IMG/VR virus record: IMGVR_UViG_3300034374_009547 | Origin: a virus | Lineage: Duplodnaviria; Caudoviricetes | Reading direction: 5' to 3' (one strand) | Length of the DNA stretch: 64,000 bases | Shown here: piece after piece, positions 33,840 through 48,489 of the stretch | Numbering within the stretch: position 1 is the first letter of the stretch | How the letters are laid out: every line of letters begins with the position of its first letter | Notes under the pieces: generated by a model | What the model was told of the DNA's origin: nothing | The model's database searches: none | Seen by the model: the letters and a program-made list of their open reading frames with translations, nothing else | Program-made: the position numbers and the translations under genes

Positions 33840-35012
33840 ATGTCAGAACTACTAGAAAGTCGCTGGCAAGATACAAAAACAGCACTTCTTGAAGGCCTAT
33901 CAGGCAATAAGAAAGCAGTAATGGCTTCAACATTAGAAAATACTCGCAAGTATTTGGCTGAAACTGCAACTGCTGGTGCTACATCTGCCGGTAACATCGC
34001 AACACTTAACCGTGTTATCCTACCAGTGATTAGACGTGTTATGCCAACCGTCATCGCTAATGAAATCGTTGGTGTTCAACCAATGACTGGACCAGTTGGT
34101 CAAATTCACACACTACGTGTTCGCTACAGCGACACAGCAGGCTCAGGCGCAGCAGGCGCAGTAGCTGGTGAAGAAGCACTATCACCATTCAAAATCGCAG
34201 AAGCATATTCAGGTAATGCTACAACAGCAAAAGCTGATGCAACTGCGGCACTAGAAGGTGCAGCTGGTAACAGACTAAGCATCCAGATCTTGAAACAGAC
34301 CGTGGAAGCTAAATCACGTAAGCTATCAGCACGTTGGACATTTGAAGCGGCACAAGACGCTCAAGCACAACACGGTATCGACGTAGAAGCAGAAATCATG
34401 GCTGCACTAGCACAAGAGATTACTGCAGAAATCGACCAAGAGATTCTAGCATCTCTAAACACACTAGCAGGAACAGGTACAGACACATTTAACCAAGCGG
34501 CTGTATCAGGTACTGCAACATTCGTTGGTGACGAACATGCTGCACTAGCAGTATTAGTTAACCGCGCAGCAAACCGCATCGCACAGCGTACACGCCGTGG
34601 TGCAGGTAACTGGGCTGTTGTTTCACCAGCAATCCTAACCGTACTACAAAGTGCAACTACATCAGCATTTGCACGTACTACAGAGGGTACATTTGAAGCA
34701 CCGACAAACACAAAAATGGTTGGTACATTGAACAATGCAATGAAAGTATATGTAAACACATATGCAGCAGACGACGATGTACTAGTTGGTTACAAAGGTA
34801 CTAGCGAATCAGACGCAGCAGCGTTCTACTGCCCATACATCCCATTGATGAGCAGTGGCGTTGTACTAGATCCGACATCATTCGAACCAGTTGTGAGCTT
34901 CATGACACGTTACGGATATGTTGAGCTATCAAACACAGCATCGTCGCTAGGTAACGCAGCTGACTACCTAGAAAAGGTAGAAGTAAACAGCGGAAACCTA
35001 AGCTTCAGCTAA
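33840..35012 (+). CDS. gp23: Major capsid protein, T4 gp23-like
   Basis: VIRRVMPTVIANEIVGVQPMTGPVGQI, VEAKSRKLSARWTFEAAQD, EITAEIDQEI, FYCPYIPL and TRYG. Confidence 0.95.
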   Translation: MSELLESRWQDTKTALLEGLSGNKKAVMASTLENTRKYLAETATAGATSAGNIATLNRVILPVIRRVMPTVIANEIVGVQPMTGPVGQIHTLRVRYSDTAGSGAAGAVAGEEALSPFKIAEAYSGNATTAKADATAALEGAAGNRLSIQILKQTVEAKSRKLSARWTFEAAQDAQAQHGIDVEAEIMAALAQEITAEIDQEILASLNTLAGTGTDTFNQAAVSGTATFVGDEHAALAVLVNRAANRIAQRTRRGAGNWAVVSPAILTVLQSATTSAFARTTEGTFEAPTNTKMVGTLNNAMKVYVNTYAADDDVLVGYKGTSESDAAAFYCPYIPLMSSGVVLDPTSFEPVVSFMTRYGYVELSNTASSLGNAADYLEKVEVNSGNLSFS

Positions 35013-35032
35013 GTTTAAACTTATATGATTTT

Positions 35033-35060
35033 AAAATAGGCCCTACGGGGCCTATTTTTT
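35033..35060 (+). terminator. Intrinsic terminator after the major capsid gene
   Basis: AAAATAGGCCC-TACG-GGGCCTATTTT followed by a T run. Confidence 0.9.
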
Positions 35061-35074
35061 TGGTATATATTACA

Positions 35075-35914
35075 ATGAAGTTTAATGTTAATAAACATAT
35101 TGAATATAGAAACAATCGATTTACCAAAGTATCAATATCTAATCCTAAGTTATTAGGATTAGCTACAATAGAAATTAATCCAACAGAATTATGCAACAGA
35201 ACTTGTAGTTTTTGTCCTAGAGTTAATCCTTTATTATATCCAAATCGTAATTTAAATATGACAATAGAAACAGCTCAATTAATTGTTGAACAATTATTAG
35301 ATGCTGAGTATAATGGAGATATTAATATTACAGGATTTGGCGAACCATTATTAAATAAAGACATTGTACAAATATGTACTATATTTTCTAAACATTATCA
35401 TACTGAATTAATAACAAACGGCGATAATATTTTAAATGGTAAAATTACTTTACAAGATTTAGAATTCTTAGATTTATTAATTATTGATTGTTACGATGGC
35501 AAAGAACAAGTAAAAAAATTTAAAAATTTACTTAAAAATAAAAAAAATAAATTTATATTGCGTCCACATTATGACACTGGAGATCCTGCATTAATTAATC
35601 AATATGGATTTAACAACAGAGGTGGATTATTATACAAAAAATCTAACAGCAATCCTTGTTATATGCCGTCATATAAAGGATTTATAGATTGGAATGGAGA
35701 TGTAAGACTTTGTTGTAATGATTGGAGTAGGAAGCAATTACCATTTGGAAATATACATAATAATACATTTTCAAAAATATGGATGAATAATAATTTTGTA
35801 AAATTAAGACAAGAATTATACAACGGTAATAGAAATTTTAGTAATGCTTGCGAGACTTGTGATGTATGTGGTACAAAAGTAGGAAAAAATAGTGCTGAAT
35901 TATTTTTAAGCTAA
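35075..35914 (+). CDS. Radical SAM protein with SPASM/twitch domain
   Basis: CNRTCSFC (CxxxCxxC), GFGEPLL, and C-terminal PCYMP...IDWNGDVRLCCND...GNI...CETC. ATG 35075 is preferred because the track start lies inside the terminator. Confidence 0.85.
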   Translation: MKFNVNKHIEYRNNRFTKVSISNPKLLGLATIEINPTELCNRTCSFCPRVNPLLYPNRNLNMTIETAQLIVEQLLDAEYNGDINITGFGEPLLNKDIVQICTIFSKHYHTELITNGDNILNGKITLQDLEFLDLLIIDCYDGKEQVKKFKNLLKNKKNKFILRPHYDTGDPALINQYGFNNRGGLLYKKSNSNPCYMPSYKGFIDWNGDVRLCCNDWSRKQLPFGNIHNNTFSKIWMNNNFVKLRQELYNGNRNFSNACETCDVCGTKVGKNSAELFLS

Positions 35915-35921
35915 GTACATA

Positions 35922-36623
35922 ATGGATATTAGTATTGAAAAAACTCCAAAACAAAAGTTAAGTAAATATGCAATTGATACTGCAAGCGGTATTAGTATTA
36001 CTCATTTGCCTAACACAAGTCTTTCAAAGGTAAAAGATGCAGCAATAGAAATTAATGATTTAGCTGGAAGTTCAAAAGCTATGGCACATATTGCTGCACG
36101 TAATATACAAAGTGAAACTGAACTACATGAAAATTGTATTGCAATGCGCAAAGCAGGTGTTGATAAAGTTTTACTTATTGGAGGCAGTACGTATCATGGA
36201 AAAGTTTTTCAAACATTTTATGAAGTAAGAGATGCTATAGAATCATATGGCTTTGATATGTATTGTGGTGTATATCCACAAAGTGAAACTTACTCTAACA
36301 TGGCATACACAAAGTATTTGCATTTTAAAGGAGGAATAAGTCAACTATGTTTCAATCCTAAAATGTTAAATACTTGGGAAAAGAAGACACGGTACGGTGT
36401 TGCAACTAACTGCTCTCTAGACGGTTTATGGAAATATGCAAAAATTTGTGGAATAACAGATAGTGTTGCTTATGCATTAGGCAATTTAAGAGGATTAACA
36501 TACGTTACTATGAAAGGATTTAACACGGTAAAGTTTGTAAAAGATTTAAGAAATGACAATCCTATACATCTTTATAATTTTGGAAAGTTAGATCAAACAC
36601 TATTACAATTGGAGATGATGTAA
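35922..36623 (+). CDS. Divergent methylenetetrahydrofolate reductase (MetF)-like protein
   Basis: SIEKTP, SITHLP, AHIAARNI, AGVDKVLLIGG, GVYP, SQLCFN and KYAKICGI resemble short MTHFR-family proteins (by recall, not searched). Confidence 0.6.
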   Translation: MDISIEKTPKQKLSKYAIDTASGISITHLPNTSLSKVKDAAIEINDLAGSSKAMAHIAARNIQSETELHENCIAMRKAGVDKVLLIGGSTYHGKVFQTFYEVRDAIESYGFDMYCGVYPQSETYSNMAYTKYLHFKGGISQLCFNPKMLNTWEKKTRYGVATNCSLDGLWKYAKICGITDSVAYALGNLRGLTYVTMKGFNTVKFVKDLRNDNPIHLYNFGKLDQTLLQLEMM

Positions 36624-36820
36624 TGCCAACAGGAACAATTTACAAATATAATAAAAATAGAAAGTTTAGTGTTATTAGACCTGATAACTGGAAAACAGGA
36701 TTAATTGATGTACTATTTGAAACAATTACTTTTGATGCAAAACTAGGTGATCGTGTTGAATACGATCAAATACAAATAAAAAGTAAAAGATATGCACAAA
36801 ATCTTAAAAAAATAGGTTGA
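36623..36820 (+). CDS. Cold-shock-domain-like small OB-fold protein
   Basis: MPTGTIYKYNKNRKFSVIRPD...GDRVEY...AQNLK aligns with the CspA pattern (TG.V..FN..KGFGFI.PD...G.RVEF...A.NV), but RNP1/RNP2 are degenerate. Confidence 0.6.
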   Translation: MPTGTIYKYNKNRKFSVIRPDNWKTGLIDVLFETITFDAKLGDRVEYDQIQIKSKRYAQNLKKIG

Positions 36821-36845
36821 CCTTTGTGTATTCTTTTGCTATATT
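36817..36845 (+). promoter_or_regulatory. sigma70-type promoter for a non-coding unit
   Basis: TTGACC(36817-22)-N17-TATATT(36840-45). Confidence 0.7.
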
Positions 36846-36851
36846 AAGAAC

Positions 36852-37100
36852 ATAACAAAGACGACGGTCCGAGTTAGATAGTGCAAGGAAACGCTGCTTG
36901 GTAGAGGCAGTAACTTGGCTAGTAGTTGTAGTGACAGCGCATGAGCAAGGAGACTTGAAGATGTGTTTTTGGAAGTAACTATCCGATGCTAGGCTTCGCT
37001 TTTATGGAAGGATCTACAAAGGCGATTGTTGGTAATCCTTAATCCAACCTATCATATATTATTAATCGTAATACGCGATGCTGAACCTCGATTAATAAAT
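36852..37100 (+). ncRNA. Candidate structured non-coding RNA (family not recognised)
   Basis: ORF-free unit between a promoter and a terminator. Helices: CCGAGTT/AACTTGG (36869-75/36912-18), GATAGT/ACTATC (36877-82/36978-83), GCTGCTT/AGGCAGT (36893-911), CAAG-GAGA-CTTG (36946-57), hairpins 36997-37024 and 37028-48, TTATTAATCG/CGATTAATAA (37059-68/37089-98). Confidence 0.65.
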
Positions 37101-37101
37101 T

Positions 37102-37131
37102 AAAAAGGTCTACTCTGGTAGGCCTTTTTTT
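37102..37131 (+). terminator. Intrinsic terminator
   Basis: AAAAAGGTCTAC-TCTG-GTAGGCCTTTTT followed by a T run. Confidence 0.85.
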
Positions 37132-37163
37132 GTGAACATAATAACCCATTTTTATGTTTTTGA

Positions 37164-37169
37164 TAAATA
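37164..37169 (+). promoter_or_regulatory. Putative late promoter core (TAAATA) for the fibre operon
   Basis: About 90 nt upstream of ATG 37262, followed by a structured leader. Confidence 0.6.
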
Positions 37170-37261
37170 CTTATGTTAAGGTAACGAGCCTCAACGAGGA
37201 CTTATGAGGACCCAACCTCGTAGACCATAGAACGGCAAATGATTAAAAAAAGGAGAAAATC

Positions 37262-37627
37262 ATGGGACGCCCAGTAAACAAAAGAAACTTCGGTACAACC
37301 GGTGTAGACGCAACACCAAAGGTGCCAATTAGATTCCACGACGGATCAAGTTTAATTGAAGGATATATTCTTTCACAAAGAGGAACAAATAAATTTAATT
37401 GTTCAAACGACGGTGACACAATCACAAGAGTATGCAGACTTACATCAGACGGTTCAGCACCAAACGCAAATTTCGAATGTCAACTAATTGGTATCGGTGC
37501 AGGCGGCGGTGCAATTGCAATTAAGAAATTGTTCAACAGAACAGCAGTAGATTACAATAACAATCGTTATACATGGACAACAGAAGACGACTCTACAGAA
37601 TCATTGCTAAGATTAACTGCAATTTAA
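37262..37627 (+). CDS. Small probable virion structural protein
   Basis: 121 aa, strong AAAGGAG SD, first gene of the fibre operon. Confidence 0.75.
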   Translation: MGRPVNKRNFGTTGVDATPKVPIRFHDGSSLIEGYILSQRGTNKFNCSNDGDTITRVCRLTSDGSAPNANFECQLIGIGAGGGAIAIKKLFNRTAVDYNNNRYTWTTEDDSTESLLRLTAI

Positions 37628-37638
37628 GGAGTTAAACT

Positions 37639-38646
37639 ATGGGTATCTTTGTTAATCGAATAGGTGGTAACTACTACAAATTACAAGTTGATACAGGCGG
37701 AGATATTATTCTTGATGTCGGTACAACGGGTAAAGTTACCATTGACGGTGACTTAGATGTGTTAGGTGAACAAACCAGTGTTGGATCCACTCAACTTGTT
37801 GTAGACGATAATACTATTACCGTTAACAACGGAGAGACTGGAAATGGTATAACACTAGGAACTGCCGGACTTATTATGGATCGCGGTACTGATGATGATG
37901 CTCACTTCTTTTTTGATGAATCATTAGTCGGTAAAGGTGCTGAAATTGATGGTGCATTTGTAACAAGAATTGCCACAGGCGATTTAGTTAGCTTATACAC
38001 CAATGCAATATTAACAAACGGCGAGCCACTATATTTGGTAGGTACTGGTACAGGACTTGCAACGGTAACTGGTACAACTGATTATGAAAAACAAATTTGG
38101 AATTACACAGGCGATAACATTAACTTAGAACCTTTAAATCCAGATGGATTAGTTGCACCTAACGATGACGATGCTTTACTCAATGTAAAAGGTTTACAGG
38201 ACTATGTCCGAGACTATTTTGCAATTAACTTTCAAGAAAAAATTACCACAGGAACTTTAACTCCTACAAGAGTTGAAGCATTTGATACAGAAACTGGTGG
38301 AGTTACAAGTAGAGTTGAAATTAGTGTAGATGATACAATAATTGCAACTTTTTATGAAACTAGAGTAGAATTTGAAAATTTAAGATTTGACGATGACACT
38401 ATTACTAGTAACGGAATCAACGGTGATGTTGTGCTAAGAGCAGCAGGAACTGGATTTATTAAAATGGATGATTACACAAATTATACCATTCAAACAGATC
38501 CAGCTAGTCCTCCAACAGAAGGCACATTATTGTATAGTAAAACATTAGGAGATGGTGGTACAGGTTTGTATTTTAAAAATGAAGACGGGACATCAGACGA
38601 ATTGGTTAGTAGGAATAAAGCATTACTTTATAGTATTATATTTTAA
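37639..38646 (+). CDS. Probable virion/fibre-associated protein
   Basis: 335 aa, Thr/Gly/Asp-rich beta-type sequence (VTIDGDLDVLG, VDDNTITVNNGE), AAGGAG SD. Confidence 0.7.
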   Translation: MGIFVNRIGGNYYKLQVDTGGDIILDVGTTGKVTIDGDLDVLGEQTSVGSTQLVVDDNTITVNNGETGNGITLGTAGLIMDRGTDDDAHFFFDESLVGKGAEIDGAFVTRIATGDLVSLYTNAILTNGEPLYLVGTGTGLATVTGTTDYEKQIWNYTGDNINLEPLNPDGLVAPNDDDALLNVKGLQDYVRDYFAINFQEKITTGTLTPTRVEAFDTETGGVTSRVEISVDDTIIATFYETRVEFENLRFDDDTITSNGINGDVVLRAAGTGFIKMDDYTNYTIQTDPASPPTEGTLLYSKTLGDGGTGLYFKNEDGTSDELVSRNKALLYSIIF

Positions 38647-38657
38647 GGATAAACAAC

Positions 38658-38990
38658 ATGGCAATAGTAAACGCAGCAATAGCAACAACAGATACGACAC
38701 TACTTACCGTGCCAGCAGGCAAGAAGTATGCTATCACTACTTTGCTTGTTTGTAATACTGCTACAGATGATGGTACAGGTGCAGGAGACACTAAGTTTGA
38801 TTGTCACGTCATACCTGATGGACAAAGTAAAGCAACAACAAATTTAATCATTAATGATTTAGAAGTTGCAGCAGCAGATACTTTTACGTTTGCAGCTGAA
38901 AGATTAATTTTAGAAGAAGGTGATAGAGTTGTAGTTGTTGGAACAACACCTACAAATTTAAGCGCCACACTTAGTTATTTGGAAGTTTAA
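38658..38990 (+). CDS. Small probable virion structural protein
   Basis: 110 aa, beta-rich, AAGGA SD, abuts the giant fibre gene. Confidence 0.7.
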   Translation: MAIVNAAIATTDTTLLTVPAGKKYAITTLLVCNTATDDGTGAGDTKFDCHVIPDGQSKATTNLIINDLEVAAADTFTFAAERLILEEGDRVVVVGTTPTNLSATLSYLEV

Positions 38991-41900
38991 ATGAGTTTTA
39001 TTAAGAAGCAGTCATTACACAAAAGAAAAGTAGGAGATAAGTCATTTATTCTTACTGCCGACGGCAACATTGAGATGAATCTTGCTGCCGGTAAAACATT
39101 TACGGTAGATGCAGATTTCATAGCAACTGGAGATGTATCAGGTCCAAAAACAGAAAATGTTTTTTATGTTACAAAAGATGGTAGTGATGATAATGACGGC
39201 CGAAGTTCTGACGGTAAAGGTGCATTTGCAACAATTAAAAAAGCAGCTGAAGTAGCACCTTCTGGCTCAACAATCATTGTTGCACCAGGCGATTATTTTG
39301 AAGAAAATCCTATTACACTTAAAGACTTTGTAACCATTACAGGACAAGGTGAATTACGTAATACAAGATTATTTCCAAAAAATAATACATCAGACTTCTT
39401 CTATATGGGTAATGGCTGTTACTTGTATCAACTTACATTTAGGGCACTTCGTGCGCCAGGATGGTGTGTAAAGATTAGACCAGGTGCATTGGTTACAACA
39501 TCTCCTTATGTACAAAACTGCACAAATATGAACGGTCCTTGGTTAAACGACGGTACTGAATTTATACCGTTTGAAACCGTTCAAATTGAAGGAATTGAAC
39601 CGGGCGCAAGACCACTAACGTTAGCAGATAATCCAAGTCTTCCATTTGACAAACAAGTAAACTTAACCGGTGGCGGTGGCGGGATGTTTGTCGACGGCGA
39701 CCAATATGATCCAGCATCACTTGTGTTTTCATTTGTTGCAGACGCATTTACACAAATTGCTCAAGGTGGTCCAGGATTTGAAGTTACTAACTTTGGTTAT
39801 ACTCAGATTGTTAGTTGCTTCTCTGTTTTCTGTTCAACAGGATTCAAAACAACAAAAGGCGGCTATTTAAGTATCTCTAACTCGGTATCTGACTTTGGTA
39901 CATTTGGTTGTGTTGCAGATGGATTTTATCCAATTGCATATACACAAGCTGTGCCAACTGAAGATTATTTTAGTACCGTTGGTAGTATTACAATCAATCA
40001 ACCAGGAGTTGGATATACCAGCAATCCTACAATTACAATCGAATCCCCAGACGGTGCAGGTGGTGTAACAGCTACCGCTACTGGACAAGTCGACCTTACC
40101 ACAGGACAATTAGCTGCTATTACAATCACAAATAATGGTAGTGGATATACATCAGTACCAACCGTTACAATTACAGGCGGTGGCGCAACTATTCAAGCAG
40201 AAGGTACCGTAAACTTAACAACAAATAGTGTTATATCATTAGCAAGTTTACGAGATAAACCACAAACTGGTAGTATTATAAAATTTGATGACGACGATAC
40301 ATATTACTACATTACAGCAAACTCAATTACAAAGACGCCATTTAATTATAATGAAGAAACTTGTAAAAGAGATGTAAGACGTATTGTTGATGCTGTAACA
40401 GGTGATATTGTTTTAGGAACATATTATCAAACAACAGCAGCCGCTACTAGCTATTTACGTAGTACATCAACAAAGGTTATTTTAGATCAATTAGAACCTA
40501 CAATATATGCAATTGAAGCTGCTAGAGATCAAATGAAAGCAAGAACAACAAATCTTGCAATGAAAGAAGAAATTGATCAGCGTTTTAATATTATTACAAC
40601 AACTTTAGCAGCAGGTGACAGCACTGAAACAGAATTTGTTGGTAGTGACTTTGTAAATGCATTAAATGATATTAATAGTATTGATAATGAAATAATTGAA
40701 GCAAAAAATAACATTCTTGCTAATAGAGATTTTATTATAGAAGAACTTACTGCTTATATTAATGATCAGTTTACAGAACTAAGTTATAACCAAACAAAAT
40801 ATACTAGTGAAATGTCAGAATTTATTACAAGTATGGCATACTACGTAGGCTTTAATGGAAGCGATCATAAAGTTTTAAGGGCTGCTCGCGAATGGAGCAA
40901 TAGTAGAGCAAGATTTAATGATATGATGATATCTAGCTTTAGATATTTACAACAACGTTTCCTTGCATTATCTGAAGTACAAGCAAGTGCAGTTGCAGTT
41001 ACAAATGTTAATGAAGCATTTGAACAACTTGCAAACATTATTGACGAAGGCGATAGTGCAGGTATTACTACAGAATTTCCGGCAGCAGTTGGTACTAATC
41101 AAAATGAAATTGATGCTAGAGATCAATTAATTGCAAATATGGATTTCTTGAAAGCAGAATTTATTGCATATCTTGATAGCATTAACTCAACTATAAGTTA
41201 TACTCAAAGTAAGTTTGAACAAGATGTTGAAAATGCTGTAAATAGTGTAATTTACGATATTATGTACGGAGGTAATACTGCAACTAAAAAAGAAGCTGAT
41301 TATTACTTCAATAGCGAAACTTGGAGTTCTAATTATACTCAAGTTGAAAGACAAGCTATTATTGACTCATGGGCAAGAACACGTTTTGCAATGCAACGTA
41401 TTGTAAGAGGATTGTCAATTACTCCAACTACTGGTAATGCGCAAACACAAGATTTTACAAGTGGCACTGCAACTCAAATCGAAGCAAATATTGCTGATAG
41501 CTTGATTCAGTATTACGAAACCGTTTTGACCGATTTAGCATTAACTAATCTACCACTTGATGTTTTACCGTTATACGATGATGAATCTGTATTACAACAA
41601 GCAGCAGCAAATACTATTTTAGCACAAAGAGATAATTTCATTGAGGATGCAATTGCTTATAATTTAGCAAACAACCCAACTCTAACATATGATGTATCAA
41701 AATGTAAAAGAGATGTAGAATATATTATAGATGCAATATACAGCGATGCACAATTAGGCACAAACCATCGCAGTATTACTGCTGGTTTAGCTTACCAGAG
41801 AGCTAATGTTGCTTATTTGAATACAGAACAAAAACCTGCTACAATTATTGCTATGCGTGAAGCAAAACGTTTGTTAGTTGCAGCGGCAAATGGTAATTCA

Positions 41901-48380: not shown

Positions 48381-48406
48381 TTAAGCTACTACTTTTTCTC
48401 CTATGA

Positions 48407-48412
48407 TAAATA
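48407..48412 (+). promoter_or_regulatory. Putative late promoter core (TAAATA)
   Basis: In the gap before the 3617-aa gene; a second copy at 48471-76 lies next to AGGAGG SD. Confidence 0.55.
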
Positions 48413-48489
48413 ACATTACAGCGATTTCTATCGTGTAGTTTTGGGCGTCTATATAGACCTGACCCGTACCTAAATAGGAGGCATGCCGA

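Follow-up and report, generated by a model that had tools for sequence, protein, structure and literature searches.

The window analysed here, a stretch of 64,000 nucleotides (nt) from the virus record IMGVR_UViG_3300034374_009547 (IMG/VR; Duplodnaviria, Caudoviricetes), contains between two protein genes an interval with a promoter, a terminator and no sizeable open reading frame (ORF). This raises the question of which kind of RNA is encoded there, and whether it serves the gene behind it or acts on its own. A first-pass annotation, made from the letters alone, had proposed a structured phage RNA of no known class. As described below, the RNA belongs to the manA family (RF01745). With a probability of roughly 0.75 we consider the locus to be the gene for a divergent manA-family RNA, which would be a free-standing RNA rather than a cis leader and would most likely associate with itself through contacts between its hairpin loops.

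Assignment to the manA family

At default thresholds the Rfam scan of the window gave no match. With an E-value threshold, a scan of positions 36500-37400 (901 nt) revealed manA (RF01745) at 36858-37058, covering model positions 1-192 of 192 with 39.2 bits and an E-value of 1.9e-8. The default scan misses this copy because 39.2 bits lie under the curated gathering score of 55.2; the low score is partly due to an interrupted first hairpin (P1, listed below). No other Rfam family matched the unit itself convincingly, and a scan for tRNA and tmRNA found none, which agrees with the first-pass annotation. That annotation had left the RNA unclassified and had listed a ribozyme among the options. The Rfam scan which it proposed leads to manA instead, and nothing in the analysis points to a ribozyme.

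Relatives were sought in IMG/VR via the protein of 121 amino acids (aa) encoded downstream, which returned 64 loci (numbered with L in the following). Some 35 of these carry, ahead of the 121-aa homologue, DNA homologous to window positions 36817-37261, with 67-89% identity. Six syntenic lineages score above the manA gathering score (L046 with 89.3, L018 with 85.3, L062 with 66.5, L012 with 62.5, L001 with 59.0 and L009 with 55.4 bits), and copies passing that score, L001 among them, can be aligned with the window copy over their whole length, as can L006. When 15 distinct copies were used to build a covariance model, this model located a single copy in the window and likewise exactly one in each of 44 loci out of 70. 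Based on the full-length match, the syntenic copies above the gathering score, the end-to-end alignment and the single model match per locus, the window RNA belongs to the manA family as a divergent, sub-threshold member and does not constitute a new RNA class. A whole freshwater sub-family of manA is missed by the Rfam gathering score. No cultured relative could be identified at the DNA level, as blastn searches with the unit and with its best-scoring homologue against 50,697 phage records gave no match.

Short manA variants of about 176 nt, in which part of the P2/P5 region is missing, occupy the same slot at L012:2683-2862 and L025:2677-2853. The L012 type, at 62.5 bits, lies above the Rfam gathering score; the L025 type escapes both Rfam and the 15-copy model.

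Fold and covariation

Mapping of the Rfam consensus onto the window gives the following predicted elements.

36854 to 36875, plus strand: hairpin P1 with GACG loop, imperfect here (3 + 3 pairs around a 3x3 internal loop)
36877 to 36881, plus strand: long-range closing helix, 5' strand GAUAG, partner 37049-37053
36884 to 36917, plus strand: P2 (CAAG/CUUG) around hairpin P2a (36894-36910), from the mapped consensus and covariation
36919 to 36992, plus strand: P3 (CUAGUA/UGCUAG), closing a junction of three hairpins
36925 to 36935, plus strand: P4, within the P3 junction
36937 to 36966, plus strand: P5, within the P3 junction
36946 to 36957, plus strand: P5a, hairpin with GAGA tetraloop, within the P3 junction
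36969 to 36986, plus strand: P6, within the P3 junction
36996 to 37025, plus strand: P7, long hairpin with apical loop AAGGA (37008-37012)
37028 to 37048, plus strand: P8, hairpin of 5 base pairs (bp) with an 11-nt loop, in which UCCUU (37036-37040) pairs with the P7 loop
37049 to 37053, plus strand: long-range closing helix, 3' strand CUAUC, partner 36877-36881, end of the manA core

Pairs were counted on a MAFFT alignment of 15 distinct copies (A3), which was not fitted to the structure. In this alignment 89.2% of the cells are paired, compared to 28-42% when the 3' partners are slid. Changes on both sides are seen for 33 of the 70 pairs (3-14 in the slid controls), and the covariation score of 0.312, against at most 0.09 after sliding, was reached by none of 500 shuffles. 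A second alignment of 25 distinct copies (A4) is model-based and hence biased towards the structure; it gives 92.2% paired cells, both-side changes in 58 of 70 pairs and a score of 0.486 against at most 0.067. Compensatory changes are thus abundant among the homologues. They strongly support the predicted manA fold, and with it the consensus structure of the family.

The single helices follow the same pattern. All nine P1 pairs are changed on both sides in A4, and in L024 and L010 P1 is a continuous stem of 6 bp. The closing helix, which Rfam denotes by square brackets, is nested and not a pseudoknot, and is recovered by the minimum-free-energy fold; it covaries in L019, L062 and L046, is 95.5% paired and has three pairs with changes on both sides. 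Within the junction P3 is 100% paired in A4, P5 96.7%, P5a 96.4% and P6 98.1%. Both-side changes occur in nearly every pair of the P3-P6 junction, including all four pairs of P5a, and the GNRA loop of P5a is kept as GAGA, GUGA or GCGA across the copies. The outer stem of P7 is 98.3% paired, with five of five pairs changed on both sides.

Several of these elements had already been recognised in the first-pass annotation. The CTAGTA/TGCTAG pairing corresponds to P3, the GAGA hairpin at 36946-36957 to P5a, and the hairpins at 36997-37024 and 37028-37048 to P7 and P8, all of which are supported by covariation. The annotation had also drawn a pseudoknot from two crossing helices (36869-36875/36912-36918 and 36877-36882/36978-36983). 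These strands are complementary, but their covariation score is 0.138 versus 0.095 at a slide of +1, and they clash with better supported helices. The pseudoknot was rejected for these two reasons.

The conservation of the interval might also be explained by a small peptide, either MCFWK or one of the ORFs of 25 to 36 aa, or by an antisense transcript. AAGGAG is found 8 nt ahead of the ATG at 36961, and ORFs of 25, 26 and 36 aa overlap the unit. However, the column of the MCFWK start codon reads ATG, ATA or TTG, and the peptides differ among the copies, with indels that break the frame; for lack of a conserved start codon and of an intact frame the small-peptide reading was rejected. Moreover, the supposed AAGGAG is made up of the covarying stem and the GNRA loop of P5a. 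The 36-aa ORF lies on the minus strand and spans an insertion private to the window copy, and the minus strand folds no better than shuffles (z -1.14), whereas the plus strand does (z -2.46). We regard peptide and antisense transcript alike as extremely improbable.

Contacts between hairpin loops

Two pairs of hairpin loops are complementary to each other.

36929 to 36932, plus strand: contact A, P4 loop UAGU, partner 36978-36981
36978 to 36981, plus strand: contact A, P6 loop ACUA, partner 36929-36932
37008 to 37012 with 37036 to 37040, plus strand: contact B, P7 loop with P8 loop (AAGGA/UCCUU)

Contact A was recovered by RNAalifold unprompted and is 100% paired in A3, where its centre pair is AU in ten copies, GC in four and GU in one. 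The AGGA/TCCT complementarity within contact B had been noticed in the first-pass annotation, and it holds: 88.9% of the cells are paired in A3, three pairs are changed on both sides, and the contact covaries through at least six versions (AGGA/UCCU, CAGA/UCUG, AUGA/UCAU, CUGAU/AUCAG, GUGG/UCAC and GGUA/UACC). The Rfam consensus of manA carries both complementarities as GUGGUG/ACCA and CUGU/ACAG. Judged from the aligned copies, the window RNA shares with manA the complementary hairpin loops and the GNRA-capped middle hairpin.

According to a cryo-electron microscopy (cryo-EM) preprint (Ren et al. 2026, bioRxiv 10.64898/2026.07.01.735769), manA forms pentamer-based decamers, octamers and a 60-mer cage. 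Intermolecular kissing loops (L5-L7', L8-L9' or L3-L8') and the GNRA-receptor contact L6-P6' hold the subunits together. The covariation suggests that the loop-loop contacts are under natural selection. If their mapping to the contacts of the preprint holds, then the assembly contacts would be under selection as well.

Promoter, transcript and terminator

The RNA is framed by the following signals.

36817 to 36822, plus strand: -35 hexamer TTGACC, kept as TTGAC[CT] in 22 of 22 distinct manA loci
36837 to 36845, plus strand: extended -10 element TGCTATATT, with TG at 36837-36838 and TATATT at 36840-36845
36852 to 37131, plus strand: predicted primary transcript of about 280 nt, its start placed by promoter geometry and its end by the T-run of the terminator
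37058 to 37097, plus strand: private insertion of about 40 nt with its own AU-rich hairpin of 10 bp, absent from all 20 other aligned copies
37102 to 37131, plus strand: intrinsic terminator (A5, stem 37107-37113/37118-37124 GGTCTAC/GTAGGCC, loop TCTG, T7)

The promoter of the window (36817-36845) consists of TTGACC, a 17-nt spacer and TATATT, with 10 of 12 matches and an extended -10. All 22 distinct copies have the form TTGAC[CT]-N16/17-TATATT or TATTAT, and in each of these loci 0-10 nt (mostly 4) separate the second box from the beginning of the RNA model. The terminator folds at -8.3 kcal/mol. In the homologues it begins 8-13 nt past the core, and its stem carries compensatory changes (GGTCTGC/GCAGGCC, GCCCGA/TCGGGC and GGCATG/CATGCC). 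A clear terminator is present in 21 of the 22 distinct copies; that of the remaining copy, L062, was identified by eye only and has an interrupted T-run. The gap between core and terminator amounts to 50 nt in the window versus 8-13 nt in the relatives, because of the private insertion with its 40-nt hairpin. The only ORFs overlapping the unit are those of 25, 26 and 36 aa.

The promoter-to-terminator unit without a sizeable ORF, as drawn in the first-pass annotation, is therewith confirmed, and so is its view of a self-contained structured RNA behind a host-type (sigma-70-like) promoter. From such a promoter the host RNA polymerase would make the RNA early in infection, and the product would be a free RNA of about 280 nt ending at the intrinsic terminator.

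The unit in environmental RNA

The window stretch was found in 14 freshwater metagenome runs and in six freshwater metatranscriptome runs, and four of the RNA runs were compared over positions 35000-39000. Three of these four contain contigs which cover manA only (36870-37076, 36870-37091 and 36882-37092) and show zero differences from the window. Their k-mer depths are 119, 29.6 and 47.6, compared to 10.6, 9.4 and 14.1 for the adjacent late-gene contig and 2-4 for the upstream genes. In three freshwater metatranscriptomes the manA-only contigs are accordingly 3-11 times deeper than the contig of the neighbouring late gene. The manA unit is transcribed in nature.

The RNA contigs of the window strain extend into the private insertion. 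A sequencing adapter adjoins 36867 in one record and marks the end of a fragment there, about 15 nt downstream of the predicted start. In three runs the first position of the late-gene contigs is 37185, which is 15 nt downstream of the ATAAATA box and 3 nt short of the freshwater-2 model (both described below). No RNA contig covers 37093-37184 and none joins manA to the late-gene contig, but such holes in the cover prove nothing. At most, RNA ends are weakly hinted at by contigs that stop at 37091 and 37092 in two studies or start at 37185 in three. The RNA contigs contain no joints of the kind expected from a circular form, for which contigs are a poor test.

In the RNA runs X16 and X17 the manA of a second strain (36900-36966) was observed, with k-mer depths of 522 and 87, which is 3-4 times above that of the window's own copy. 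Its differences from the window are paired and keep the helices: 36926 T>C with 36934 A>G in P4, 36948 A>T with 36955 T>A in P5a, and 36964 T>C in P5, which turns a G-U into a G-C pair. Compensatory variation is here seen directly in environmental RNA.

The downstream gene and its own signals

Behind the terminator the window continues with signals of the next gene.

37162 to 37170, plus strand: GATAAATAC box, T4-late-promoter-like, for the downstream gene; ATAAATA is invariant in 21 of 21 aligned loci
37188 to 37264, plus strand: freshwater-2 motif (RF02980), 5' leader of the 121-aa ORF (44.9 bits, gathering score 49.9)
37262 to 37627, plus strand: 121-aa ORF, downstream late structural gene with the freshwater-2 leader in front

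The T4 late-promoter consensus is TATAAATA. The freshwater-2 match spans the Shine-Dalgarno sequence and the ATG (37262) of the 121-aa ORF, and the motif exceeds its gathering score in more than 20 homologous loci (e.g. L039:2921-3003). Every locus, whether it carries manA or not, has the ATAAATA box and the freshwater-2 leader in front of the 121-aa gene. In the manA-less loci L021 and L004 an upstream terminator is directly followed by box and leader, and in L066 and L067, which also lack manA, a 65-aa gene is directly followed by the ATAAATA box. Therefore, manA with its promoter and terminator behaves like an insertable cassette in a variable slot. In other lineages the slot is taken up either by small ORFs only or by a glutamine riboswitch and a small ORF.

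These observations bear on the idea that manA is the leader of a riboswitch or attenuator, which would sense a ligand, control the terminator at 37102-37131 and in this way gate read-through of transcripts from the early promoter into the 121-aa structural gene. The manA RNA motif was described by Weinberg et al. 2010 (PMC2864571), who rated it as cis-regulatory and as a riboswitch candidate. The canonical copy of the cyanophage P-SSM2 is a true 5' untranslated region (UTR): it reaches 181.6 bits, has the promoter TTGACA-N16-TATAAT and no terminator, and 15 nt separate the RNA from the next ATG. In the loci studied here manA always lies upstream of the same gene and on the same strand, followed by a terminator, and with its promoter and complex conserved fold the unit resembles a terminating riboswitch. 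However, the downstream gene retains an invariant ATAAATA box and a freshwater-2 leader of its own irrespective of manA, its RNA contigs begin at 37185, and the manA contigs exceed the downstream contig in depth by the factors given above. The AU-rich linker between core and terminator varies (8-13 nt in relatives, 50 nt here) and the terminator sequences vary freely. The folds show neither an overlap of manA with the terminator nor a pairing that competes with manA, so that a mutually exclusive (antiterminator) pairing of the 3' part of the aptamer with the terminator is missing. A search for an antiterminator by folding found none; the terminator hairpin forms in the full-length folds as well as in those of the 3' 110 nt, among copies with a complete terminator. 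Neither Weinberg et al. 2010 (PMC2864571) nor the preprint (10.64898/2026.07.01.735769) reports a ligand for manA. The downstream gene has a promoter-like box of its own, and we hold a riboswitch or attenuator to be rather improbable.

The location in a 5' UTR, on which the Rfam type 'Cis-reg' is based, is not found here: the window manA is not a 5' UTR because an intrinsic terminator and not a start codon comes after the RNA, and terminator, ATAAATA box and freshwater-2 leader all precede the ATG at 37262. Since the P-SSM2 copy has no terminator, the terminator represents a real architectural difference and not a general property of the family. The missing 5'-UTR location bears on the context and the proposed role of the RNA, not on its homology.

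Between the manA terminator and the ATAAATA box (window 37131-37161, columns 384-406 of alignment A1) most manA-carrying loci contain a strongly conserved block, ACATTATAACCCATTTTT. It is missing in L018, L046, L062 and L012, and could be an upstream promoter element.

The freshwater-2 motif starts about 18 nt after the invariant ATAAATA box, beside the capsid gene of T4-like freshwater phages. To our knowledge RF02980 has never before been assigned to an organism.

On the plus strand of the window ATAAATA occurs four times. The copies at 37163 and 48406 are cleanly intergenic and ahead of structural genes, the other two are ambiguous, and GATAAATAC with one mismatch is not enriched in the window. 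With four plus-strand copies, two of them ambiguous, ATAAATA was rejected as a general late-promoter mark of the window. The second intergenic box, GATAAATA at 48405-48413, lies 84 nt ahead of a giant ORF of 3617 aa with a different leader, which shows no similarity to freshwater-2.

Neighbouring genes and the variable slot

Two upstream genes are of importance for the origin and the context of the unit.

33840 to 35012: T4-type major capsid gene (Pfam Gp23, E 3e-101)
36623 to 36820, plus strand: 65-aa ORF with a predicted cold-shock-domain fold, directly upstream of the manA unit

Its nearest cultured relatives are found in giant phages, for example Sinorhizobium phage Phosso, Vibrio phage 2.275.O and Cronobacter phage GAP32, with 65-69% amino-acid identity of the capsid protein. 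The source is a freshwater T4-like giant phage. A radical-SAM/SPASM gene, a 233-aa ORF, the 65-aa ORF and then the gene-free RNA stretch separate the capsid gene from the 121-aa ORF. The TGA stop of the 65-aa ORF falls within the -35 hexamer of the manA unit.

The first-pass annotation had called this neighbour cold-shock-like, which is borne out at the level of the fold. Pfam CSD (PF00313) matches with an E-value of 0.061 and 13.6 bits (cut-off 27) over profile positions 2-65 of 66, and a profile search against the PDB finds the cold-shock-like protein 2lss with an E-value of 0.005. The AlphaFold2 model has five strands and a predicted local distance difference test (pLDDT) value of 87.4. Nearly all of its top 30 Foldseek matches are Csp or YB-1 domains (CspC, CspA, CspB, YB-1), with template modelling (TM) scores of 0.74-0.77. 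On the basis of this model the product is predicted to have the cold-shock-domain fold, a five-stranded OB-type beta-barrel.

Such a neighbour suggests a ribonucleoprotein, in which the RNA would be scaffold, cargo or substrate of the cold-shock-fold protein, and the protein a chaperone or a sequestered partner. The fold of the 65-aa protein fits this. Of 20 distinct lineages with manA, 13 have the gene for this protein directly before the manA promoter, and its stop codon falls inside the -35 box. However, the adjacency is not obligatory, because the 65-aa gene is missing in seven manA lineages (L006, L012, L018, L046, L059, L062 and L033) and manA is absent in L066-L069, which have the 65-aa gene. 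The two genes moreover share a slot which gathers unrelated cassettes, and their adjacency may reflect the insertion site. A ribonucleoprotein of this kind appears unlikely to us.

The variable cassette site reaches from the terminator of the capsid gene to the ATAAATA box (window 35060-36820 region). It is empty in L021 and carries manA alone in L012 and L006, whereas L040, L052 and L056 have small ORFs there with a sigma-70-type promoter of their own. The site in the window comprises the radical-SAM/SPASM gene, the 233-aa ORF, the cold-shock-fold ORF and manA. In the same slot glutamine riboswitch aptamers (RF01739, 50-56 bits) were found at L018:2214-2264, L046:2298-2345 and L050:2733-2781, just upstream of manA in the first two and ahead of a small ORF in the third. 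The slot between capsid gene and late gene gathers small regulatory-RNA cassettes.

Comparison with other structured RNAs

The likeness of the window RNA to manA comprises the full-length covariance match and the order of the helices, with a 5' hairpin of the GACG-loop type, closing helix, P2, three-hairpin junction and two 3' hairpins. It further includes the loop pairs (UAGU/ACUA and AAGGA/UCCUU in the window at the places of the two consensus pairs), the GNRA middle hairpin, the T4-like phage as carrier and a sigma-70-type promoter that immediately precedes the RNA, likewise seen in P-SSM2. In contrast to known members, the window copy remains below the gathering score, contains the private 40-nt insertion before the terminator and resides in a freshwater giant T4-like phage, not in a marine cyanomyovirus or in Photobacterium.

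Further phage-borne RNAs come to mind. In cryo-EM reports of 2024-25 ROOL, GOLLD and OLE RNAs are said to close into symmetric RNA-only assemblies in vitro by means of intermolecular contacts. They are reportedly free-standing, abundant and highly structured RNAs of phages or prophages, as is proposed for the window RNA, but are said to be 2-4 times longer and are unrelated in sequence and fold; none of them was matched in the Rfam scans.

Interpretation

The free-standing, self-associating manA RNA which we favour would act as a particle in its own right and not as a cis-acting leader. Its likeliest mode of action would be a head-to-tail self-association through the two covarying loop-loop contacts, an idea that follows the assemblies described for other manA RNAs.

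Several points weigh against this reading. The window copy does not reach the Rfam gathering score, and manA is still classed as cis-regulatory in the literature. Contact A is missing in L019 and an obvious contact B in L070, and covariation is blind to whether a contact is made within one molecule or between two. Contacts A and B and the GAGA loop were matched to L5-L7, L8-L9 and L6, as named in the preprint, by helix counting alone. Oligomerisation is argued by analogy only, and for the window RNA self-assembly is inferred only. The RNA evidence consists of assembled contigs, from which neither strand nor exact ends nor true levels can be read, and strains sharing the sequence are added up in the k-mer depth. 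Finally, X15, one of the four RNA runs, has no manA-only contig; a contig of low depth (2.9) there connects the 65-aa gene to the first 30 nt of manA, which is some upstream read-through or a carry-over of DNA.

One may go further and suppose that manA is here a free early RNA which forms pentamer-based particles or cages in infected cells, possibly aided or loaded by the cold-shock-fold protein. This extension is conceivable, though doubtful. If true, it would provide the first in vivo setting for a natural RNA-only cage, and 'manA' would never have been a riboswitch.

Since 2010 manA has been an orphan 'riboswitch candidate', and in the preprint its cages are formed in vitro without a known biological setting. 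The window locus and its 21 distinct relatives present the manA fold as a self-contained promoter-terminator unit of freshwater T4-like giant phages, which is inserted like a cassette between capsid gene and late structural gene and is abundant in environmental RNA. The locus adds a single-module case, the contrast to P-SSM2, support at the RNA level and the covariation of both loop-loop contacts. It is also a compact and well-bounded test object, with a cold-shock-fold gene often adjacent. Taken together, the apparently selected loop-loop contacts and the autonomous unit argue for a trans-acting RNA particle over a cis switch.

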